Below, one piece after another: positions 5,780-62,352 of a stretch of DNA of 64,000 bases. The position numbers and the translations under genes are program-made. Position 1 is the stretch's first letter, and each line of letters opens with the position of its first letter. Source of the stretch: Nitrospirales bacterium. Lineage in GTDB: Bacteria; Nitrospirota; Nitrospiria; Nitrospirales; UBA8639. The notes beneath the pieces are model-generated. The model saw only the letters and a program-made list of their open reading frames with translations. It searched no databases and was not told the origin of the DNA. Location of the stretch: NCBI GenBank assembly GCA_050248735.1, contig JBFWRU010000005.1, forward strand, positions 39,607 to 103,606, given 5' to 3'.

Positions 5780-7249
5780 TCAGGCCCCTACTGGTTCTTC
5801 AACTTGAGGAAGCGAAGATTCCGGCAGATGGATGGTCACTGTTAAGCCACCGCCCGGGATGTTGGCCAAACTGATGTCCCCACCATGATTGCGAACGATG
5901 GACCGTGCGATGGCCATGCCCAGGCCGATTCCTCCGGTTTGTTTATTGCGGGATTCCTCCAGGCGAACGAATGGCTGAAAGACTCGTTCAAAATCTTTCT
6001 CGGGAATTCCCGGACCGTTATCTTGAATCGCAATCTGAAACTCCGTGTCATGCTGCCGGAGCGTCACCTCGGCCCGACCTCCATAGTTCACGGCATTTTC
6101 AATCACATTTCGAATGGCCCGTTTGAGGCTGGTGGGGCGGCAGGTGTATGGAGTTCTCTTCACACTCTCAAATTTCACATCCATTCCCATATCGGCCAAG
6201 TCCTGACACAGGCTATCAATCAGGGCGCTGAGATCGACCGAACGCGACCGTTCCGTTGAGGCCTCATCACGGGCAAAAGCCAGAGTCGCTTCCGTCATTC
6301 GTTGCATGTCTTCCAAGGTTTCCAGCATTTTGCCTCTCGCTTCCCGGTCTTTCAGGAGTTCGACTTGAAGCCGAAGAGAGGTAATGGGACTGCGTAAATC
6401 GTGGCTGATGGCCGCCAACATTCTCGTTCGATCCTGAACAAACCGTTGAAGACGTTCATACATGCGGTTAAACGCCAGGATAGTCTGCCGGATATCAACG
6501 GGACCCTCTTCGGACATGGGCGTGATGGATTCTCCTCGACCGACCCGCTCCGCAACATCCGTCAGTTGCTTCAGCGGACGGGTAATGCGTTGCAGCATCA
6601 ACACGACAATCAGGCAAATGCTGCCTCCGGTTAGCACCATCGAAATCAGCGTCGGCAGAGCCCAGCGGCCGAGTGATGGCGTCACCCCCATGCCGACATT
6701 GAGCCACCGGCCGTCCTGGAGACGCGCGGATATCAGCAGGCCCGGTTCATCAACATCTGAAAGCGGAAGAGGAAAGGATGATCCGGGGATGTCACTTGGT
6801 AATGCGGAATTCTTAACGCCGCCCGGCATCTCGCGTATTTTCTTTTTCCATAATGCGTCCTGTTGGGGAAGCATGAACCTCAGTTCAGACACTGCGTTCT
6901 TCTTCAGCAAATCCTTGAGACGGCTGATCCACTCATGATCACCCTGCGGGAGGCCTTTGGGAATAAGGCTGGCTTCAGATAACCAGTAATACAGTTTTCG
7001 GGAACTGGCGGCCTGAACCATCCGATCGTGCAAGTCGACCGGGCTGTGTTCAATGAGATCGATGAGGGAGGCGGTTCGTTCGAGAATCTGAGTCCGTTCA
7101 ACCGATCGGATGGCCCCGCGGCGTTCATCCGTAAAAATCAGAAAGTTGGCAACCTGCGCAATAATGAGCGAACCCAGCAAAAGGCCGATCATCTGGCTGG
7201 TCAGCCGCTGCGGCCACCAGCGTCGAGCGAATGAACGGATCGGTTTCAT
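5780..7249 (-). CDS. Sensor histidine kinase (2 TM, HAMP, HisKA, HATPase_c), partner of the upstream OmpR-type regulator
   Basis: H-box AAISHDLRSPITSL, N-box IRNVIENAVNYG, G-boxes DNGPGI / GGIGLGMAI. The start ATG at 7249 (MKPIRS) forms an ATGA overlap with the regulator stop. The ORF track extends the frame to 7291. Confidence 0.85.
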   Translation of the reverse strand: MKPIRSFARRWWPQRLTSQMIGLLLGSLIIAQVANFLIFTDERRGAIRSVERTQILERTASLIDLIEHSPVDLHDRMVQAASSRKLYYWLSEASLIPKGLPQGDHEWISRLKDLLKKNAVSELRFMLPQQDALWKKKIREMPGGVKNSALPSDIPGSSFPLPLSDVDEPGLLISARLQDGRWLNVGMGVTPSLGRWALPTLISMVLTGGSICLIVVLMLQRITRPLKQLTDVAERVGRGESITPMSEEGPVDIRQTILAFNRMYERLQRFVQDRTRMLAAISHDLRSPITSLRLQVELLKDREARGKMLETLEDMQRMTEATLAFARDEASTERSRSVDLSALIDSLCQDLADMGMDVKFESVKRTPYTCRPTSLKRAIRNVIENAVNYGGRAEVTLRQHDTEFQIAIQDNGPGIPEKDFERVFQPFVRLEESRNKQTGGIGLGMAIARSIVRNHGGDISLANIPGGGLTVTIHLPESSLPQVEEPVGA

Positions 7250-7971
7250 TCGAGGATGACTTCCGCCGTGAACGTATAGCCGCCGCCCCATACGGTCTTA
7301 ATCAAGATGGGTGACTTGGGATCCACTTCGATCTTTTTTCGCAACCGGCTGACCTGGTTGTCGATACTGCGATCAAAGACATCGCCCGCACGATGACGCG
7401 TGAGATCCAGTAATTGGTCCCGCGTCAACACCATGTGCGGATGATTGAGGAACACCGTCAGTAATACGAATTCACCCGTGCTGAGCGGAATGGCCACGCC
7501 ATCTTCGCCCATGAGTTCCCGTTGCGACACATGGAGGACCCATTCCCCAAACTTCATGATGGTTCCCGCAATGCGACGCTCCTTCCAGGGCAGGCTGTTC
7601 GCACGCCGGAGCACGGACTTGACTCGTGCCAGCAATTCACGGGGATTGAACGGTTTCACCACATAATCATCGGCACCCATTTCCAGCCCGATCACGCGGT
7701 CCATGTCTTCCGACATGGCCGTGAGCAAAATAACGGGAATGTCCTTTGTTTCACGTAAATGCCGACAAAGAGAGAGGCCGTCTTCTCCCGGCATCATAAT
7801 ATCCAGGACCACGAGGTCGATGGCGCTGTTCTCAAGGATTTTTCGGGCTTCCGCTGTGTTTCCGGCCGAACTCAGCCGAAAGCCTTTTTGAGTGAGATAG
7901 GCGGAAAGCGGATTGCGGATATCCGGCTGATCATCAACGACGAGTATATGTGGCAACGAAGCGGAATCCAT
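7246..7971 (-). CDS. OmpR/PhoB-family response regulator
   Basis: Receiver ILVVDDQPD...LVVLDIMMPGEDG...KPF plus a winged-helix C-terminus (IKTVWGGGYTF). The ATG at 7971 is preceded by AGGAGG. A TTG at 7998 is the ORF-track alternative. Confidence 0.9.
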   Translation of the reverse strand: MDSASLPHILVVDDQPDIRNPLSAYLTQKGFRLSSAGNTAEARKILENSAIDLVVLDIMMPGEDGLSLCRHLRETKDIPVILLTAMSEDMDRVIGLEMGADDYVVKPFNPRELLARVKSVLRRANSLPWKERRIAGTIMKFGEWVLHVSQRELMGEDGVAIPLSTGEFVLLTVFLNHPHMVLTRDQLLDLTRHRAGDVFDRSIDNQVSRLRKKIEVDPKSPILIKTVWGGGYTFTAEVILE

Positions 7972-8179
7972 ATGCCTCCTGACCCGTTCCTTCTTCAACT
8001 ATTATGACGCGAACACCGGAAGTGTGGAAAAGAAAATTGTATCAAAGTTTGTCAGAAGGGAATTCTGGCAGGTTTGCTTACAAAAAAGAAGGATTTGGAA
8101 AAATTTCCGTGAAATTTCCTGGTTATACTGACCGAACAGAGTATTAGGAGTTTTATCCCCTGTTCCATGAAGAAAGACG

Positions 8180-9667
8180 ATGAGCCCCTTGAACATCCCG
8201 AGCCACCAGTACATTCCTGATGTTGAACGGTGCATGATCGACCGACGATTTTGGCACCGCCTCTTTATGAGTTTCACCATGGTCCTGATGACGACAGGTT
8301 GTCTGATAGATCCCCAGCCGATTGACTTAAAAACCCGTACGCCCAATTCCTTTTCCCGTTCAGGCCCAATGCCGTTGCCCGATAAATGGTGGGAAGCGTT
8401 TGACGATCCGGTCCTTGACCGGATGATTGAAACCGCCCTGACAGATAATTTTTCACTCCTGGCGACCTGGGACCGTCTGAAGCAGGCCGAAGCGATTGCC
8501 GTGCGCGAACGGGCACAACGATTTCCCGGTCTCAATGCAACCAATACGTTGAGCCGCAGTCGCGATAGTGAGGGCAATCAGACAGACCGGGTCGGACTGG
8601 GATTACAAATGGCCTACGAGCTTGACCTGTGGGGACGGGTACGGGCCAATACCAGTGCGGCCTACTTCGAGGTGCAGGCCAGTCAGGCCGATTTAACCGT
8701 CGCGGCGATCACATTATCGGCTGAAATCGCCAAAACCTGGTATAGCCTGCTCGAACAACAAGGGCAACTGTCATTACTTGAAAATCAGATATCGACCAAC
8801 GAGCAAGTGCTCAAATTAGTCACCCTGCGATTCCGGCAGGGCGTCGCCTCTGCGGCCGACGTGCTGCGTCAGCGGCAATTGGTTGAGCAAACTCGGGGTG
8901 ACACCAAAGATGTCCGGTCGCAGATCGAGACGCTGAGCCATCAACTCGCCGTCCTCCTCGGTCAACCGCCAAAATCGGTGGACATTCCCAGCGACAAATC
9001 CTTGATCCAATTACCGCCGCTTCCCAGTACCGGCCTGCCGGGGGAGTTAATTCAACGGCGCCCTGACGTGCAGGCGATTTTTTACCAGGTCCAGGCAGCC
9101 GATGCCCGTGTCGCGGCCGCCATTGCCGAACGTTTTCCACGCATTGATCTGGCCGGTGCGCTGACCACCAATCTCAGCTCAACGCTGGCCGGGGGGGCAT
9201 TCGCGAGGACTCCTGCAGGGCTCTTTGCCAGTTGGTTAGCCACCGTTTCGGCACAAATTGTGTTACCCATCATCGATGGCGGAGCACGGAGGGCGGAAGT
9301 GGATCGAACGAAAGCCGTTCTCTCCGAAGTCCTGCACAATTATGAGGCCACAATCCTTCAGGCATTTCAAGAAGTTGAAAATTCATTAATTCGTGAGGCG
9401 CAGCAACGGGAAAAAACGGCCAGTCTGGAAGAGCAGTTTCAACTCGCCACCCAAGTCATTCAACGTCTGCGGGCCCGCTATATTCACGGTGGGACCGCCT
9501 ATCTGGATGTGCTCAATGCTCTGAGCAGCCAACAAGGTCTTGAACGCCAGATTCTGACCGCCCGGCGGACGTTGATCGATTTCCGGGTGGATCTGGCCAA
9601 GGCTCTGGCCGGCGGGTGGTATATGACCAAACCTGAAATCCGTGAATTAACCATTTCTACCGGATAA
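8180..9667 (+). CDS. RND efflux outer-membrane lipoprotein, NodT family
   Basis: 495 aa with lipobox VLMTTGC, WWEAFDDPVLDRMIE near the N-terminus, and two OEP repeats. An alternative start is at 8234 (MIDRRF). Confidence 0.85.
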   Translation: MSPLNIPSHQYIPDVERCMIDRRFWHRLFMSFTMVLMTTGCLIDPQPIDLKTRTPNSFSRSGPMPLPDKWWEAFDDPVLDRMIETALTDNFSLLATWDRLKQAEAIAVRERAQRFPGLNATNTLSRSRDSEGNQTDRVGLGLQMAYELDLWGRVRANTSAAYFEVQASQADLTVAAITLSAEIAKTWYSLLEQQGQLSLLENQISTNEQVLKLVTLRFRQGVASAADVLRQRQLVEQTRGDTKDVRSQIETLSHQLAVLLGQPPKSVDIPSDKSLIQLPPLPSTGLPGELIQRRPDVQAIFYQVQAADARVAAAIAERFPRIDLAGALTTNLSSTLAGGAFARTPAGLFASWLATVSAQIVLPIIDGGARRAEVDRTKAVLSEVLHNYEATILQAFQEVENSLIREAQQREKTASLEEQFQLATQVIQRLRARYIHGGTAYLDVLNALSSQQGLERQILTARRTLIDFRVDLAKALAGGWYMTKPEIRELTISTG

Positions 9668-53044: not shown

Positions 53045-54403
53045 ATGACCCAACAGAACACCCCGGTACCGGTTCCCAACAAGGAAGGGTTACAACACCT
53101 TCTGGTCCGGTTAGCCAAACAATCCCAACAGAGTGACTTCCAGGCCCAACGCCAATCGGCGCTGAGCCTGGCTCTGGAACCCTATTTGGATCCTCTCACC
53201 GCGCAATATCTTTCTCCCCTCGAAGAAGAAATTCAGTTGGCCGAATGGTATCTCGTTGCGGATTACTTCCCGACGGATGGGCATCCCTCTCTGATCGAGC
53301 AAATCCGCGACACGATCACCGAGCATGTCCCCGAAGAAGAACGCCTATGGCTTGATCCGGTCCGACATTCGTATATGGATGTATTGACCATCCTGAACGC
53401 CGATTCATCTACCACACCCAATCGTCTTGACCTCCAATCCCTGGGGGACCAACAACAGTTTCAGGTTACCTATCCGATTAACCCCGCACTCCAGAAAAAC
53501 CGGGTGCTGCTCACCAGGCTCATACGGGGACCATCCGTCACCTACCTTCCCGGACCGCCCCTGATTCTGTCAGAAGCCATGGGGAACGTCCTCATGACCT
53601 TCGCTCAGGCCCTGAGGCGACACATTGAATTCAACACGGGAAACTTTGCGCTTGCCGAGTGGCCGGAATTCTCCAAGCAATACGGTTATCTCTTGATTTG
53701 GAGTCTGGCCAGGCTCAGAGGCGGGACCATGACCGCGGCCGATCAGCAGGTGACGTACTGGACTGAATCAGGCCAGCCGTTTTTGTATGCCATTGCCCTG
53801 TATGCGCATTGCGAGTTTCGAAGCTTGGCAACAGGATTGAACGAATGGAAACAGCTGCGTCCCCACCCCCACAATCATTCCATTGACCCTACGAACACTA
53901 AACCATCGGACCTTCGCGAATGGATCGAACTCAGCCCAAAATCGGACAGGCCTTCGTACGCAGTTGCCCGTCTGACCCTGACTCCGACCCAACTGATCGT
54001 TGAGGCAGATTCGGCTGCACGCCTGGATGACCTCAAACATCAATTGGCAGCCACCTTTGGATTCTCCCTGCACTTTAAGGGAGAAACGCTGACGCCTCCA
54101 TCCCACTCCCCGCCACACGTGGATTTATTGGCGACGGAATATGTAGCCCCTCCTGTCACTGTTTCGGTGAAAGAGGAAACCAGGCTGTTATCCTCGTTTC
54201 TCGAGAAAGTCTATTTGGAATGGGCGGAACAACCTAGCCCAACTCTCAACAATGAGACTCCCCGCCATTACGGCCGGGATGTCCAAGGTAAACAAGCGGT
54301 CGCCGCCCTGATCGACCAGATGGAAACACACGATCTGGGCCTTCGACGGACGGGGAAACCGGCATACGATTACCAGACCCTTCGATCACACATCGGCATT
54401 TAG
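53045..54403 (+). CDS. Hypothetical 452-aa soluble protein, family not recognised
   Basis: Long clean ORF lying 17 nt after the usp gene and 14 nt before hydB. There are no TM segments or catalytic motifs I can name. Confidence 0.7.
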   Translation: MTQQNTPVPVPNKEGLQHLLVRLAKQSQQSDFQAQRQSALSLALEPYLDPLTAQYLSPLEEEIQLAEWYLVADYFPTDGHPSLIEQIRDTITEHVPEEERLWLDPVRHSYMDVLTILNADSSTTPNRLDLQSLGDQQQFQVTYPINPALQKNRVLLTRLIRGPSVTYLPGPPLILSEAMGNVLMTFAQALRRHIEFNTGNFALAEWPEFSKQYGYLLIWSLARLRGGTMTAADQQVTYWTESGQPFLYAIALYAHCEFRSLATGLNEWKQLRPHPHNHSIDPTNTKPSDLREWIELSPKSDRPSYAVARLTLTPTQLIVEADSAARLDDLKHQLAATFGFSLHFKGETLTPPSHSPPHVDLLATEYVAPPVTVSVKEETRLLSSFLEKVYLEWAEQPSPTLNNETPRHYGRDVQGKQAVAALIDQMETHDLGLRRTGKPAYDYQTLRSHIGI

Positions 54404-54417
54404 GATAGGCTATCCCT

Positions 54418-55539
54418 ATGGATGCAGACACGGAACAACTTCATGTCCCCAAACTCCTGCTCCGCGCAGATTTCCCGCAACTCCTTCAGGCACTCAGGAA
54501 GCTCGGCTATCACATTATCGGGCCGGTGTTGTCACAAGGATCAATCCAATGGAAGGAAGTTCATGCGGTCGAGGATCTGCCGGTCGGATGGAAAGACCAC
54601 CAGGAGCCGGGACACTATCGACTGGAACCGGATCCCGCTCCTCGCTACTTCAATGTGGTGCATGGCCCGGAGTCGCTCAAATCTCTCACGTTTGCGCGGC
54701 GAGAAACCCTCCTGGTCCTGGACCGACGGGACAACACATTCTCAGCCAAAGAAATCCATCCCGACATCCAACCAACTGCCGTCTTGGGAGTTCGAGCGTG
54801 TGACCTGGCCGGCCTGGCCATTCAGGACACCATATTCTTGAATGGCACCTATCCTGATCCCTATTACCAACAGCGTCGGGACCAACTGTTCCTTGTGGCC
54901 GTCAACTGTACCAGGGCCCTATCAACCTGTTTTTGCGCATCAATGAAGACAGGGCCAAAGGCTGAAGAAGGGTACGATCTCAGTCTCACGGAAGCGGATG
55001 AAGATTTTCTGATTGAGGCTGGGAGCCAGGCAGGGGTGAAAGTCCTGGAACAACTGCCCTGTTCAGTCGCACCACAAGAACGGATGACCCAGGACGAGGA
55101 ACGAATAACAGCCTGCGCATCGAGTCAAACCCGAAACCTGCCCCAGTCGGCGTTACCGGATGTCCTGTATGAAGCCCACGACCACCCCCGGTGGGATCAA
55201 GTCGCTACACGCTGTTTATCCTGCACCAATTGTACAATGGTCTGCCCAACCTGCTTCTGCCACGGCGTGGAGGAGACACCCTCACTCGATGCTCAACACA
55301 CGGAACATACCCGTGTATGGGATTCCTGCTTCACATCCGATCACGGGTATATCCACGGGAAAAATTTCCGTCCCACCACCAAAGACCGCTATCGCATGTG
55401 GCTCACACACAAACTCGCTACCTGGGTCGATCAATTCGGTATGTCAGGCTGCGTCGGATGCGGGCGCTGCATCACCTGGTGCCCGGTAGGCATCGACCTC
55501 ACGGAAGAAGTCCGAGTCCTCTCCCAACCGCCTCAATAA
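54418..55539 (+). CDS. hydB: 4Fe-4S cluster subunit, sulfhydrogenase beta (HydB)/AsrA-like
   Basis: 373 aa with [16 protein letters not shown] and [14 protein letters not shown] ferredoxin-type motifs. The N-terminal domain is colinear with AsrA/HydB-type proteins. Confidence 0.7.
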
Positions 55540-56825: not shown

Positions 56826-57113
56826 CTACTTGTGCGCGATAGACTTCTCCGTAAACAGATAGGCCTTTAATTCCTTGGAGAAAGCCGAATCCTTGCGTCG
56901 AATCCATTCCAGCACCATCGCCGCATGCTCTTTCTCCTCATCTCGATTGTGCTTGAGAATCGCCTTCAGTTCCTCGTCCTTGCACGCATCAGCACGCTGG
57001 TTATACCAATCAACAGCCTCCAGCTCTTCCATTAACGAAACAATAGCTCTATGCATATCGCGCGTTTCATTCGACAACTCCTCGATGGGCTCGTGATAAC
57101 CAACGCTAGCCAT
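56826..57113 (-). CDS. Encapsulated-ferritin (EncFtn)-like ferritin-like protein, lacking a C-terminal encapsulin-targeting peptide
   Basis: 95 aa with HRAIVSLMEELEAVDWYNQR and HNRDEEKEHAAMVLEWIRR, colinear with the Rhodospirillum rubrum EncFtn ferroxidase-centre segments. The protein ends at YLFTEKSIAHK. Confidence 0.8.
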   Translation of the reverse strand: MASVGYHEPIEELSNETRDMHRAIVSLMEELEAVDWYNQRADACKDEELKAILKHNRDEEKEHAAMVLEWIRRKDSAFSKELKAYLFTEKSIAHK

Positions 57114-57896: not shown

Positions 57897-58160
57897 CTAT
57901 CTTTCACGATAGACCTCTCGTCGATGTCCTACTTTCACCACAATGACCACGAGATCCTGGTCCTGTATTTCGTATACGATTCGATACATGCCCTGCCGCA
58001 CTCGAAATCTTTCTTGTCCAGATAATTTTTCGCTCTCTTCCGGTCGTGGATCATCCGCTAAAGCGTCAATGCGCTTAAGAATACGATCTAAATCGCGTTG
58101 GGGTATGGATCGAAAATCTTTGGTAACAGACTTTTTAAAGATTAGCCTATATTTGGCCAT
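57897..58160 (-). CDS. Type II toxin, RelE/ParE superfamily
   Basis: 87 aa with YRIVYEIQDQDLVVIVVKVGHRREVY. It overlaps the upstream antitoxin gene by 14 nt. Confidence 0.8.
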   Translation of the reverse strand: MAKYRLIFKKSVTKDFRSIPQRDLDRILKRIDALADDPRPEESEKLSGQERFRVRQGMYRIVYEIQDQDLVVIVVKVGHRREVYRER

Positions 58161-58380
58161 GAGCCTTCAGATCGTTCAGAAGTTCTTCATAGCTGAGCGT
58201 AGGCTCGCTGGCACGCTCCTGGAAAGCAGCCAGATCTTCCTGATCCTCGGCCAGGGCCAATCGTACGGCATCATTGACGATGTCGGAGACGGACCTATTG
58301 GTGTGTGCAGCCTTAATTCGCAGGGCAGCATGAAGATTTTCATCGAAGTAGACTGTCGACCTCTTGGATGTTGTTCCCAT
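58147..58380 (-). CDS. Ribbon-helix-helix (CopG-like) antitoxin
   Basis: 77 aa with an RHH N-terminus STVYFDENLHAALRIKAAHTNRSVSDIVNDAVRLAL and an acidic C-terminal toxin-binding tail. Confidence 0.75.
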   Translation of the reverse strand: MGTTSKRSTVYFDENLHAALRIKAAHTNRSVSDIVNDAVRLALAEDQEDLAAFQERASEPTLSYEELLNDLKAHGQI

Positions 58381-58409
58381 AAATCATGCCTCCTTCCTTC
58401 CATACATCA

Positions 58410-58441
58410 TAGCGCTTTAGCATCAAAACGTCAAAGCGCTA
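58410..58441. promoter_or_regulatory. Inverted repeat TAGCGCTTT-N14-AAAGCGCTA, candidate RHH-antitoxin operator
   Basis: Nine-bp arms at 58410-18 and 58433-41, lying 30-60 nt upstream of the antitoxin start (58380, minus strand). Confidence 0.35.
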
Positions 58442-58509
58442 AAACAACAAAGAGGTTGCAACAGCAAAAATCGCATTACATTTCAAATGCTAATTTATCT
58501 CTGACGCAA

Positions 58510-58812
58510 TCAGTCATAACCATACAGCCATTTGGTCGTGGCATGATGAATGTTTTTGACTGAATGTTGCGCCCTTTTCGGAATGAACACCTCGTCTCCC
58601 GATTCAGCGATGAACGCTTCTCCCTCAATCGTCAATCGCAATTTGCCTTCAACAACAGTGACCAGTTCATTGGTTGTATGGACAAAATCGTTCCATTCCT
58701 TCCCCGGAGGATCGACAAACAGGTTGCACGAATATCCCCGCTTACTCCATGACCGGGCAACCTCATCGCGATTCAGAGGGACAGCAAACTTCTTCGGGGT
58801 GACATATTGCAT
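58510..58812 (-). CDS. Cupin-domain protein
   Basis: About 100 aa with NELVTVVEGKLRLTIEGE..ESGDEVFIPKRAQHSVKN, a cupin beta-barrel pattern. ATG at 58812; the ORF track starts at the TTG at 58839. Confidence 0.7.
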   Translation of the reverse strand: MQYVTPKKFAVPLNRDEVARSWSKRGYSCNLFVDPPGKEWNDFVHTTNELVTVVEGKLRLTIEGEAFIAESGDEVFIPKRAQHSVKNIHHATTKWLYGYD

Positions 58813-58896
58813 GGAATCTTTTCTGATCAGAAGGTTCAAGTTGCAAAGCGGACAGATTGGGGTGCCCCCTTCTCAAGTGAATTCTAAAAAATGGGG

Positions 58897-59382
58897 TCAT
58901 TCAACATGCGATTCAAATATCCAATGATTTCTTGCCCATCCGGCCAGTAGATATCTATCCTCTACTGTTGTACCACTAAACTTCCCGATCCACATCCGCA
59001 TTTTCCGGAAAAGACTATGCACCACTTCTTCTGAATTCCCCTGGAATACCATCACGCGATATGTTGAACGCGAGACAAGTAACTTCTCAAAATCTTCTTT
59101 GATGGCCTTTTCACAGCCCCACTCGCATTCCGCGACAAGTGGTACATCGATAATGTGGCCTTCACGATCAGACTTATACCACACAACGTCGTATAACCAT
59201 TCTTTTCCTTCGTCCGTTTCACATCCATTTGAGGCTGTCAGACAGTCGAATTCTCGTCCAATTCCTATAATTGCGCTCTTGACCGCCACAGACCAACGTT
59301 TTTCACCTTGCCATTTCTCAGCCATAGCCTTCACAGGGATAGCTTGCAAGGCTTTTTGAATTGCATATTCAACGGTATTCAT
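58897..59382 (-). CDS. Hypothetical protein (low-GC cassette, small partner)
   Basis: About 161 aa from the ATG at 59382 (GTG at 59400 in the ORF track). It carries the YDVVW...LVAECEWG...DFEKLL pattern. The family is not recognised. Confidence 0.55.
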   Translation of the reverse strand: MNTVEYAIQKALQAIPVKAMAEKWQGEKRWSVAVKSAIIGIGREFDCLTASNGCETDEGKEWLYDVVWYKSDREGHIIDVPLVAECEWGCEKAIKEDFEKLLVSRSTYRVMVFQGNSEEVVHSLFRKMRMWIGKFSGTTVEDRYLLAGWARNHWIFESHVE

Positions 59383-59529
59383 TAAGTTTCCCACTGCCAC
59401 ATATCACTAGCCCTAAAAGCTGATTAGTGGATCCGCCTGTTCAGCAAGTTATGTCCTGACATCCAATAATTTCGTCGACTATAAATGTTTATTTTGTTCT
59501 CTTGAATGATGGACTTGCACCATCCCCTT

Positions 59530-60678
59530 TTAATCTCTTATGACCTCAACTTTTTCCATTAAAGAACGCTTTTTAATGTAAGCAGGGAATAGCACAGCCA
59601 CAAATGCATGGAATTTGTTTTGAATTAATTCTATCTCCTCCTTAGCCTTTGCGACTTCCTCAGGAGACAGGCGTCCAGTCTGAACCAGATTGAGCACGTG
59701 GTAGGCAACAATAAAATGGGTATCTACCTCTCCCACAATAATTTCTCCTGGGTTTTCTGCCCCCATTTCAAGAGCTTCATTAAATTGCTTCTGGTCGTAA
59801 TGGAAGGAGGATTCGTTCCGAATTTTTTCCAAGATTCCCTTGGTCCTTCGACAAGAAAAAATTGTCCGTCGAAATTCTTCATAGGATTGCGAGACCTCAC
59901 TCTCAAGTTCTGACATAGCAACCGCAAACGATGAAGTATTTTGTCCCTTCTCAAAGATCTCATTCCAAACATTGTGCAAGAATCCGAGTCTTAGCCTATA
60001 CAGAAAAAATTGGCTCCTTTCCTTTTTAGTCAGTGCAATTTCATCTTTTCCTAACGATGCGTTTTCACTCTCTAATAAATCTTTCAATCGCTCAAAATTT
60101 GATAGATCTTCATTCGCCGCAAGTACCATGAGGACATATCTAGATAAATTATCTGTATGGGGAAATAGATCCTTAATTTTAAATTTCCATAATTCATCAT
60201 TCGCATAACTTGGGGATTCCCCCTCAACGTCTATTTTTGTTTTCGCGGGAGAATGAAAATACTTCGCAGAGGGTGTCTTGCTTGGATTCTTTGCAAAGAA
60301 ATCATTCACCAGATACCAGCCAACCTTTGAGAACACCAAAAGCCAACACAACAAAATGACTATACCCTTAAATTTTAAGTTTGTGTCATAAGGAGGGAAT
60401 TCACGCTGAAATGCACCATCCGCCCATGTGGCGAATACGAAGAAAGGTAGAAATAAGTAGGCCAGCAACGCCCAACCCAACACTATTGCGAAGAGGTAAA
60501 AGAGGATCTTTTTGTAAAATGCTATGCGTACCCCCTCAAAGGATGATGCAGATTCCTTAAGTTTTCCTTCAAATTTCTCAAACCACTGAAGAAGGCGGAT
60601 TAGCGGGGAGGATAGGAGGGCTACTAGAATCGACAGCCCCAGAGATACATTCACATTTGACAACCAATCACCAATCAT
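59530..60678 (-). CDS. Hypothetical 3-TM protein with a large helical cytoplasmic domain (low-GC cassette, large partner)
   Basis: 382-aa clean ORF in a 37-38% GC stretch. It has hydrophobic helices at about aa 10-30, 57-83 and 104-125, and the motif R287-NESSF-H293. The family is not recognised. Confidence 0.65.
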   Translation of the reverse strand: MIGDWLSNVNVSLGLSILVALLSSPLIRLLQWFEKFEGKLKESASSFEGVRIAFYKKILFYLFAIVLGWALLAYLFLPFFVFATWADGAFQREFPPYDTNLKFKGIVILLCWLLVFSKVGWYLVNDFFAKNPSKTPSAKYFHSPAKTKIDVEGESPSYANDELWKFKIKDLFPHTDNLSRYVLMVLAANEDLSNFERLKDLLESENASLGKDEIALTKKERSQFFLYRLRLGFLHNVWNEIFEKGQNTSSFAVAMSELESEVSQSYEEFRRTIFSCRRTKGILEKIRNESSFHYDQKQFNEALEMGAENPGEIIVGEVDTHFIVAYHVLNLVQTGRLSPEEVAKAKEEIELIQNKFHAFVAVLFPAYIKKRSLMEKVEVIRD

Positions 60679-60713
60679 TGTCCTTCTTTTTTCAGATTCG
60701 AAACATTCATTTT

Positions 60714-61555
60714 AGGTAATTAGGGCGAAAGGTAACCAAAATAGATTTTTAGGAACCGTTTAAACAAGGTCTCTGATCGGTGATTAAAACAGTATTCGAT
60801 CTCTTTGAGGTACATCGGGAAATGATATTTCGATACACCTCGATAGTGATCCAAAATATGTTTTGCATAACTCCAAAATCCTTCGATCCCATGATGTGGT
60901 TCTTCACGCATCGACGGCCCACAAAGCTTTTTGAATGGTTAATCGTATGATGTTTCCCATAGTGCTTCAAGGACTGCTATCCCCGAAACGCATCGGTGCA
61001 AGATACCGAGCCTCTCCGGGTTTTGGCTTGGATATGCCGCATGAGTTCCTTTGCACTGACCGATTCCAGCAATTTGGTATAGACGCGTTTTTCCCGCTCC
61101 AGGAGCCCACACACGACACTCTTGCCCGCCGCGACTCGGCCGCGTTTGCCCTTCCGACGCCCCCCCCCGCAATAGGCTTCGTCCAGCTCGATCTCCCCTT
61201 TGAGTTTGCCACCCTCCAACTCGGCCAAATGATACAGGGCTTCCCGGAGTCGCTGGTAGACGCGGGTAACCACTTTGACGTCGGCTTACCGGTCTCGACT
61301 CAACCGGTAAGCCGGTTGGAGCAGATAGAAACCCTGCAGGATCGCGATCTCCCGCCGAAGACGACTGAGACTTTTGCTTTTGCCACAGAGCTGGCATTTC
61401 ACATAGCCTCGACTGGCGAGCAAGACCTGAAAAGATCCACAGAAAATGCACTTCCGGCCACGCAAAAATTTGTCCGCACAACTGAAAGCGGTGTTTCGTC
61501 CCATAACCATGCGCCTGTTCTCGCACACACTGGTTACGAAACACCCTAATTACCT
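60714..61555 (-). mobile_element. Decayed IS1595-family insertion sequence (842 bp) with imperfect terminal inverted repeats
   Basis: The left end AGGTAATTAGGGCGAAAGGTAACCA (60714-38) matches the reverse complement of the right end (61531-55), AGGTAATTAGGGTGTTTCGTAACCA, at 20 of 25 positions. The ends enclose the transposase fragments. No clear target-site duplication was seen. Confidence 0.7.
60720..61528 (-). pseudogene. IS1595-family (ISXO2-like) transposase, disrupted by several frameshifts
   Basis: The gene is split into four fragments in different frames. They are an N-terminal zinc ribbon (61286..61528, CIFCGS..KCQLCGK), a middle part (60977..61273, LDEAYCGGG..), a short piece (YGKHHTINHSKSFV, 60749..60970 frame) and a C-terminal part (60720..60911, IEGFWSYAKH..YLKEIEYCFNHR). 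Confidence 0.7.
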
Positions 61556-61793: not shown

Positions 61794-61832
61794 TTTTTGT
61801 ATTATCGTGCATTATGCACAATAATACAAAAA
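61794..61832 (-). terminator. Near-perfect 39-nt AT-rich palindrome immediately after the ParE-like toxin stop (bidirectional terminator-like hairpin)
   Basis: TTTTTGTATTAT-c-GTGCAT-t-ATGCAC-a-ATAATACAAAAA has 18 paired positions with one mismatch and A/T runs forming the stem ends. It lies 5 nt from the stop codon at 61838. Confidence 0.4.
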
Positions 61833-61837
61833 GACCG

Positions 61838-62131
61838 TTAGAGCCTGCCCAGCCAGTATTGAGGGCGACGCCGACTGTGTGCCACCGCCAGCACTTGAAC
61901 ACTGCCCGAGGCTTCTCGAAACAAGACCGCAAACGGGAACCGCTTCATTCGGATGCGCCTGACATTCGGTTGTTTTTCAACCGGATATCTGTGCGGCGCG
62001 TCACAGACTGTGCGCATGATTCTTTCAAACTCGGCAAGATACGAAGCACCCAGCCCGGGCCTTTTTGATTCAAAGAACGCCACGGACTCCAGATGCTCTG
62101 CCTCTGCGGCAGGATGAAACCCATAACTCAT
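61838..62131 (-). CDS. Type II toxin, ParE/RelE family
   Basis: 97 aa with FHPAAEAEHLESVAFF...RFPFAVLFREASGSVQVLAVAHSRRRPQYW. ATGA-type 4-nt overlap with the antitoxin. Confidence 0.75.
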   Translation of the reverse strand: MSYGFHPAAEAEHLESVAFFESKRPGLGASYLAEFERIMRTVCDAPHRYPVEKQPNVRRIRMKRFPFAVLFREASGSVQVLAVAHSRRRPQYWLGRL

Positions 62132-62352
62132 CTAAGCAAGGCCTGTGCTTTTTTTCTGACCTCTTCTGCCGGGATTGCCTGCACAGTGCCCTCGTCCAGC
62201 TCTCTGGCCCGGCGGTGCGCATCGGCCAGCCAATCTTCTTCTATTTCGGCGATAGTTGGTGCATCAAGGCTTAAGAGAAGTTTCTGTGCCAACTCTGCTC
62301 TTTCTTCCTCGGATAAATGAAGGGCTTCCTTTTCTATTTGCTTCAGGTTCAT
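62128..62352 (-). CDS. Addiction-module antitoxin (TIGR02574-like)
   Basis: 74 aa with LSEEERAELAQKLLLSLD...EEDWLADAHRRARELDEG, typical of this antitoxin class. Confidence 0.7.
   Translation of the reverse strand: MNLKQIEKEALHLSEEERAELAQKLLLSLDAPTIAEIEEDWLADAHRRARELDEGTVQAIPAEEVRKKAQALLR

Follow-up and report, generated by a model that had tools for sequence, protein, structure and literature searches.

The strongest feature of HEPN ribonucleases (RNases) is the motif Rx4-6H, in which the Arg is followed by a polar residue (Asn, Asp or His); helix 2, upstream of it, contributes a second acidic residue (PMC3710099). These proteins fold as a four-helix bundle in which an insert separates helices 2 and 3; the motif is located where helix 3 ends, and it is often non-helical (PMC3710099). 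Membrane-associated bacterial HEPN proteins have already been described in three groups (PMC3710099, section 15), and Csx28 of type VI-B CRISPR is likewise a membrane-associated HEPN protein (bioRxiv 10.1101/2021.11.02.466367). The two genes considered here, referred to as the large and the small gene, were compared with these and other nucleases. They lie side by side in a stretch of 64,000 nucleotides of a Nitrospirales bacterium (GenBank assembly GCA_050248735.1, contig JBFWRU010000005.1, positions 39,607 to 103,606), called the window below and used for all coordinates. An earlier note, made from the letters of the window alone, had proposed that the two genes form a low-GC cassette for abortive infection, defence or toxin immunity, composed of a membrane-anchored HEPN-like effector and a small companion reminiscent of PD-(D/E)xK nucleases. 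We consider it fairly probable that they are instead two independent, uncharacterised and probably nucleolytic solo genes, which are chance neighbours in a hypervariable Nitrospirales stretch rich in toxin-antitoxin (TA) and insertion sequence (IS) genes and do not constitute a two-component system. The features on which the argument turns are the following.

59530..60678, minus strand: large gene, called as an open reading frame (ORF) of 382 aa; exact match to P0001 = AB7T38_07790 (Nitrospirales metagenome-assembled genome)
60229..60678, minus strand: N-terminal transmembrane (TM) and linker region of the large protein (aa 1-150), present in the Nitrospira-type subgroup only
59800..59820, minus strand: codons of R287-N-E-S-S-F-H293 of the large protein
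Large protein, aa 1-~130: three predicted TM helices; ~131-157: disordered linker; ~158-382: helical domain of an unnamed family
58897..59382, minus strand: small gene, 161 aa from NCBI's ATG; exact match to P0021 = AB7T38_07785
58818..59523: window-specific segment of 706 nt with the small gene, from the stop of the large gene to the cupin gene, delimited by blastn against the syntenic loci L005, L006 and L007

Both ORFs are real genes and not chance ORFs, since their homologue matches are as strong as E = 1e-200 (large) and 1e-78 (small) and purifying selection acts on the large gene. The small ORF has an alternative start at its first GTG, which gives 58897..59400 and 167 aa. The description in the earlier note was accurate: the two minus-strand ORFs, their low GC, the three N-terminal hydrophobic helices and the quoted motifs (IRNESSFH in the large protein; YDVVW, LVAECEWG and DFEKLL in the small one) are all present. 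The GC content of 400-nt windows over 59200-61000 is 0.365-0.425 versus 0.52-0.56 in the flanking operons, and amounts to 0.406 for the large gene and 0.444 for the small gene, the whole window having 0.521. The note had been unable to place either protein in a family; indeed neither belongs to a curated one, no match being found in Pfam, NCBIfam, PADLOC, PHROGs or PDB sequence profiles.

The pairing of the two genes is confined to the window. About 14 distinct large-family contexts and about 50 small-family contexts were examined and the co-occurrence outside the window is zero. The large-family contexts are those of P0012, P0019, P0007, P0005, P0003, P0002 and P0006 and six metagenome loci; tblastn and hidden Markov models (HMMs) of alignments A2 and A3 detected no small-family gene within 5-6 kb of the large-family genes (L001-L007, L060-L065, L069-L073). 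For the small family, 47 loci turned up in a scan of GTDB species genomes. They are spread over many phyla (among them Desulfobulbus, Chitinilyticum, Peptococcaceae, Binatia, Bacteroidota, Acidobacteriota, Verrucomicrobiota and Planctomycetota), and no large-family ORF (A1 or A4 HMM, E<=1) lies within 6 kb of any of them. Nor was such an ORF found at L067 and L068, which carry the closest small-family relatives (P0023 and P0022), or at the plasmid copy L066. The pair is missing even at the closest relatives, with 85% identity for the large protein and 76% for the small one. The earlier note had tied its two-gene system to the conservation of the pair elsewhere, and with no other locus carrying it the system is not upheld.

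No substitute partner emerged for either family. Clustering of the flanking ORFs revealed no neighbour common beyond closely related genomes, only synteny at the level of a lineage, and the genes that abut the family members are mutually unrelated (e.g. a DDE transposase, a WYL/WCX regulator, Ffh). Scans of viral contigs for phage carriage gave no relatives of either family. By tblastn against plasmids, the large domain had no match and the small family a single record, the tandem pair on Allochromatium pALVIN02.

The large gene is found at the same chromosomal position with 74-88% nucleotide identity (blastn versus the window) in three syntenic loci, the Nitrospira chromosome CP058931 (L005), Nitrospira sp. 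MA-1 (L006) and L007, in all of which it has a group-3b-type hydrogenase operon on one side and a cupin gene on the other. Its flanks are conserved to a similar degree (hydrogenase subunit ~84%, cupin ~81%), and its ratio of nonsynonymous to synonymous substitution rates (dN/dS) is 0.23-0.32 against the three orthologues. The large gene is thus a long-resident, selectively conserved gene of the Nitrospira clade. Because the syntenic orthologues are equally low in GC (0.40-0.44 versus ~0.51 for their loci), low GC is an old property of this gene and gives no sign of a recent joint import with its neighbour.

The small gene is an insertion into a variable slot, present in the window only among the loci compared, since 58818-59523 has no counterpart in L005, L006 and L007: blastn homology breaks off at 59524-59536 and restarts at 58817, and the 706-nt segment occurs in 0/3 of these loci. 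This slot, with the large gene on one side and the cupin gene on the other, is a hot spot for cargo: the window has the small gene there, L006 an Unstab_antitox/ParE pair (7153-8457) and L005 a DJ-1/PfpI gene with a 169-aa ORF (6129-7408). Direct repeats flanking the small-gene insertion were sought and none was convincing. The cassette as one low-GC unit, as the earlier note had it, therefore falls apart into a window-specific insertion and a resident gene that was not recently imported.

The N-terminal region of the large protein has Kyte-Doolittle peaks near residues 18-24, 61-77 and 110-116, where the AlphaFold2 (AF2) model places long helices. Segments rich in Lys and Arg follow the first (31-57) and the third (125-160) TM helix, which suggests an N-out, C-in topology with a cytoplasmic C-terminal domain. 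A word-indexed search returned 20 relatives, 7 of them full-length (373-382 aa) with the TM region and the rest mostly soluble proteins of ~235 aa; the soluble homologues begin at about residue 152 of the large protein. In alignment A1, five members of 373-382 aa are the sole carriers of the N-terminal region. Among 1.84 billion representatives, an exhaustive HMMER profile search recovered 77 proteins with E<=1e-3, most of 210-260 aa; these 77 proteins are clusters at 50% identity. The membrane anchor of the earlier note is limited to the Nitrospira-type subgroup, most relatives being soluble.

The motif pointed out in the earlier note proved to be the signature of the family. In alignment A4, which contains 61 diverse large-family relatives with 16-59% identity, R287 and H293 are the sole invariant columns (61/61). 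Five residues separate them, or four in the 7 sequences with a gap there. Position 288 is N in 41 sequences, H in 8 and D in 7, so that a polar residue of the HEPN kind follows the Arg in 56/61; F292 and Y294 are each present in 56/61. Upstream, D191 in helix 177-203 is D or E in 60/61, and helix 213-241 has E at position 236 in 50/61 and N in 11/61. A regular Ex3[KR] pattern is not present in the large family. The modelled elements, read as AF2 secondary structure only, are helices 177-203 and 213-241, a short insert, helix 260-283, the non-helical motif, helix 296-305, a beta-hairpin and helix 339-370. By sequence and prediction, the defining feature of the family is R-[N/H/D]-x3-4-F-H-Y placed behind a long helix; the two long helices that come before this helix bear two conserved acidic positions. 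At the level of AF2 secondary structure, this order is compatible with the HEPN layout. The HEPN-like reading is proposed because the Rx5H motif and the N, H or D after the Arg fit the published criteria, which the upstream acidic positions may fit as well (PMC3710099), and from these sequence features we regard the domain as a HEPN-type RNase with slightly better than even confidence.

Some large-family loci have features of their own. P0013 (L062 1273-2586) and P0017 carry an extra C-terminal extension of ~160 aa, and in L062 the gene lies next to those of a UvrD-like helicase, which has a HigB-like domain at its N-terminus, and of a 471-aa protein without Pfam match, a setting that may be a defence island. 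In L069 (648-1226) and L073 (29-511), a protein of 160-192 aa that itself has an 'RNKVIH' (Rx4H) motif, and is without Pfam match, is encoded upstream of the large homologue; in L073 it is followed by a 107-aa TM protein and then by a 164-aa lipoprotein-like gene. In L061, the soluble homologue is preceded by a small TM protein of weak similarity, after which comes an unrelated lipoprotein-like gene. None of these RNKVIH, small-TM and lipoprotein-like genes is present in the window. Two candidates were rejected by search, namely the ~160-aa extension of P0013 and P0017 as a fused small-family domain, which has no Pfam match either, and the 160-aa and 164-aa genes upstream of the L073 large homologue as small-family members. 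The 192-aa RNKVIH neighbour in L069, having no Pfam match, was also set aside as a reference for genuine HEPN proteins.

The AF2 model of the small protein has a predicted local distance difference test score (pLDDT) of 93.2 and a predicted template modelling score (pTM) of 0.89. Its full order is alpha-alpha-alpha-beta-beta-beta-alpha-beta-alpha-beta-beta, within which an alpha-beta-beta-beta-alpha-beta core is formed by H28-44, E48-51, E66-71, E77-87, H91-102 and E108-115. Alignment A3 comprises 33 small-family sequences with 25-70% identity. Besides the start Met, D65, E85, E87, D97 and K100 are invariant in it, and E61, W62 and W88 are nearly so. In the model, D65 directly precedes strand 2 (66-71), E85-x-E87 ends strand 3 (77-87) and K100 is located in the next helix. 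A Glu in place of the Lys of (D/E)xK is known from BamHI, with Asp94/Glu111/Glu113. Weak Pfam matches to Card1_endonuc occur in two small-family members. Judging from the modelled layout, the small protein is probably a metal-dependent restriction-endonuclease-like nuclease.

The contexts of the small family are heterogeneous, with stable synteny in Binatia. In Peptococcaceae BRH_c8a and related contigs (L009-L012), the small-family gene is found between a 760-aa protein and a DUF2357/PDDEXK_7 protein on one side and an AddAB-like PDDEXK_1/UvrD helicase-nuclease pair on the other; the arrangement of the 760-aa and DUF2357/PDDEXK_7 proteins appears McrBC-like. The Peptococcaceae protein is present on at least 23 contigs. 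At L067 609-3574, P0023 (73% identical) lies among co-directional small unannotated genes of 186, 161, 182, 192, 171 and 145 aa, one of them with the Shedu nuclease domain SduA_C. Among plasmids, the family is recorded solely on Allochromatium vinosum pALVIN02 (NC_013862.1), where two tandem small-family paralogues (L066 4159-5330) adjoin an IHF-beta gene, an H-NS-like gene, a type I restriction endonuclease and VapC.

Several results weigh against reading the two genes as independent nucleases. For the independence of the genes, a terminator or promoter was sought in the 147-nt gap between them and no clear one was found, nor a recognisable minus-strand terminator, so that co-transcription in the source genome is conceivable. 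For the large protein, no HEPN profile recurs among the 61 members of A4 in Pfam, PADLOC or PHROGs, the lone trace being one CARF_HEPN match (E 0.0034), and the members of A1 showed no consistent Pfam family either. The large protein alone gave nothing significant against Pfam, NCBIfam and PADLOC (E >= 0.005 in PADLOC v2), and PDB sequence-profile searches with A1 and A4 gave chance matches only, as did those with the small-family alignments A2 and A3. Its model is of moderate confidence (pLDDT 71.9 overall, ~75-90 in most of the C-terminal domain), and Foldseek with it returned no significant match (none at E <= 0.001), the best E being 0.44 in the PDB and 0.24 among viral models (BFVD). HepT HEPN toxins are among the weak PDB matches (E 3-6.6, TMt 0.26-0.37), and BFVD gave no HEPN match. 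Moreover, position 236 is N and not E in the Nitrospira-type subgroup to which the window protein belongs. The HEPN likeness that the earlier note had seen is thus borne out at the motif level, while none of the profile and fold searches assigns the family to a known HEPN family. For the small protein, the best Foldseek matches in the PDB include HinP1I (E 0.05, the best value), EcoT38I (prob 0.57) and BsaWI, none of them significant, and nitrilase-fold proteins score about equal to the restriction enzymes. No PD-(D/E)xK family model was found for small-family members, either with Pfam on alignment A2 or with Pfam, NCBIfam and PADLOC on the protein, and PADLOC v2 returned no match of any kind for the small protein. 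Of the PD-(D/E)xK likeness that the earlier note had seen, the order of secondary structures and the invariant acidic residues with the Lys stand, without a fold or profile match.

The alternative that both genes form one defence, abortive-infection or toxin-immunity module, with a membrane HEPN-like effector and a small partner or immunity factor, could draw on their adjacency and common direction across the unpunctuated gap, on a GC below that of the window in both, and on the TA pairs and IS remnant around them. Some homologues also have defence-like settings, such as PIN_12 and HigBA (L001), DUF2357/PDDEXK_7 (beside L009), SduA_C (L067) and the type I restriction enzyme of pALVIN02. It is nevertheless very improbable, given the zero co-occurrence over all contexts, closest relatives included, and the three syntenic Nitrospira loci which keep the large gene without the small one. 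Purifying selection on the large gene in the absence of the small one argues against an obligate antidote or partner. Alternatively, the large protein may not be a nuclease but a helical membrane-associated sensor, scaffold or ligand binder, whose Arg, His and acidic residues bind a nucleotide, a metal or haem or stabilise the fold. This would agree with the lack of a HEPN match over 61 members and two structure libraries, with a domain of ~225 aa whose beta-hairpin and five or more helices exceed a minimal HEPN, with housekeeping-like settings (Moa genes in L061; P-II, CBS and Usp genes in L004) and with stable inheritance without a recognisable antitoxin. We hold it to be rather unlikely: an Arg and a His as sole invariants in Rx4-5H, followed and preceded by the polar and acidic residues described, fit the HEPN signature closely, and such a pattern is rare in purely structural or ligand-binding helical domains. 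Somewhat less likely still is that the small protein is not of the PD-(D/E)xK type but another alpha/beta enzyme or binder (e.g. with the fold of nitrilases or of other hydrolases) or a DNA-binding derivative without activity. In Foldseek, domains of the nitrilase superfamily and of acetyl-CoA carboxylase do equal restriction enzymes, all matches being non-significant, the Lys of the canonical (D/E)xK is replaced by E87 and no PD-(D/E)xK Pfam model is significant. However, the classical layout is just this core order, with an invariant Asp where strand 2 begins and E-x-E where strand 3 ends; the four invariant acidic residues and the single Lys are in keeping with a metal-dependent phosphodiesterase, and 161 aa are far too few for the nitrilase alpha-beta-beta-alpha sandwich.

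Under the preferred reading of two independent solo nucleases, we infer the following chemistry and roles. The large domain would be a metal-independent endoribonuclease, in which the His activates the ribose 2'-OH and the Arg and Asn stabilise the transition state, the active site probably being formed across a dimer. In the Nitrospira-type subgroup, the three TM helices would tether the domain to the cytoplasmic face of the inner membrane, and the tether may restrict RNA cleavage or gate it upon an envelope or infection signal, as in stand-alone HEPN proteins of the Abi or toxin type. The small protein would be a Mg2+-dependent nuclease acting alone, with a BamHI-like D...E-x-E triad and the conserved helix Lys. 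Nothing indicates a functional coupling of the two proteins. In its full form the proposal is tentative: the R-[NHD]-x3-4-F-H-Y proteins may be an unrecognised HEPN clade, or a convergent RNase, that is solo and antitoxin-less and has a membrane-gated version with three TM helices in Nitrospira, the neighbour belonging to a second, independent family of minimal BamHI-like nucleases.

The surroundings of the two genes agree with the earlier note as to the IS1595 element and the TA pairs, both found by Pfam; the cupin gene had been overlooked. The TA pairs and the cupin gene are listed for context; the ParE/Unstab_antitox pair is no part of a system with the large gene.

60714..61555, minus strand: decayed IS1595-family element, with 25-nt imperfect inverted repeats at 60714-60738 / 61531-61555
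60720-60911 and 60977-61273: IS1595 transposase fragments (Pfam DDE_Tnp_IS1595 on two ORF fragments)
61838-62131 and 62128-62352, minus strand: ParE toxin and Unstab_antitox antitoxin (Pfam)
58510-58839, minus strand: cupin gene (Pfam), between the small gene and the toxin/RHH pair
57897-58160 and 58147-58380, minus strand: ParE/RelE-superfamily toxin and ribbon-helix-helix (RHH) antitoxin (Pfam)

The IS1595 element has at least two frameshifted transposase fragments inside its inverted repeats. An 80-aa ORF at 61286-61528 with CxxC...CxxC resembles the Zn-ribbon N-terminus. The inner end of the remnant lies 36 nt upstream of the ATG of the large gene, and homology to L005 stops exactly there (60713). 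The remnant is missing from the syntenic L007, in which ParE is located 185 nt upstream of the large gene. It is thus window-specific and may have an effect on the expression of the large gene. The ParE/Unstab_antitox pair of the window is syntenic with L007 718-1624; the pair that occupies the slot in L006, on the opposite side of the large gene, is located upstream of that gene in both the window and L007. Just past the stop-codon end of the ParE gene (61838), between ParE and the IS remnant, a near-perfect AT-rich palindrome is found at 61794-61832 (19-nt arms, 95% complementary, 1-nt loop); it might serve as a bidirectional terminator or be an operator-like site. On the other side, the block of cupin and RHH/ParE-family genes (57897..58839) is syntenic in L005 and L006. 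Beyond it are an EncFtn-like (encapsulated-ferritin-like) gene at 56826-57113 (E 3e-44) and, at 53045-55539, genes for a 373-aa protein, whose syntenic orthologues in L005 and L006 are recorded with Fer4_22, and for a 452-aa protein without Pfam match. These three genes are syntenic with two Nitrospira genomes and frame the variable TA/IS stretch.

If the HEPN assignment is confirmed, the large family would be an unannotated RNase clade of ~77 clusters at 50% identity that is missing from Pfam, NCBIfam and PADLOC. It would also be a new case of membrane tethering, here in nitrite-oxidising Nitrospira, a group in which defence and toxin biology has seen few experiments. The small family would represent a minimal restriction-endonuclease-like nuclease, spread over many phyla without a methylase partner. 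As for annotation, adjacency in a TA/IS islet is no evidence of a system here, and each gene should be annotated separately.

Compared with described systems, the two genes would belong to new unannotated families within known kinds. The locus resembles the HepT-MntA and RnlAB modules in having small co-directional genes in a TA/IS islet, one of them with a HEPN-like motif, but the conserved pairing that defines those modules is missing; unlike HepT, the large gene has no MNT or other antitoxin partner. In its core order, its Asp before strand 2 and its E-x-E on strand 3, the modelled small protein would be like PD-(D/E)xK enzymes of the BamHI type. It differs from the canonical ones in that its conserved Lys is predicted in the following helix (K100) and not on strand 3, and from restriction enzymes in its size of 161 aa, without DNA-recognition or partner domains and without a methyltransferase or other conserved neighbour. 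The large family shares with the HEPN RNases AbiU2, AbiV, Abi2/AbiD-F and HepT an Arg and a His with 4-5 residues between them and N, H or D after the Arg. In the model, an all-helical core, acidic residues in the upstream helices and a motif that ends a long helix in a non-helical stretch may be further likenesses (PMC3710099). Like the stand-alone Abi and toxin members, it is often encoded by solo genes in variable, TA- or defence-rich regions (PMC3710099). In contrast to HEPN RNases, it has no profile or fold match, its domain is larger (~225 aa), with a predicted beta-strand at the N-terminus and a predicted beta-hairpin behind the motif, and an F...HY signature flanks the motif. As in the membrane HEPN groups and Csx28, a predicted cytoplasmic HEPN-type domain would be tethered to the inner membrane by TM helices. 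Unlike in those groups, three N-terminal TM helices directly precede the domain, a DUF4145 N-domain and a Zn-ribbon are lacking, and only the Nitrospira-type subgroup has the TM region; the single conserved TM helix with helical ectodomain and the CRISPR association of the membrane groups and Csx28 are absent as well. The fusion to three TM helices is thus a new architecture within the known theme of membrane-tethered HEPN.

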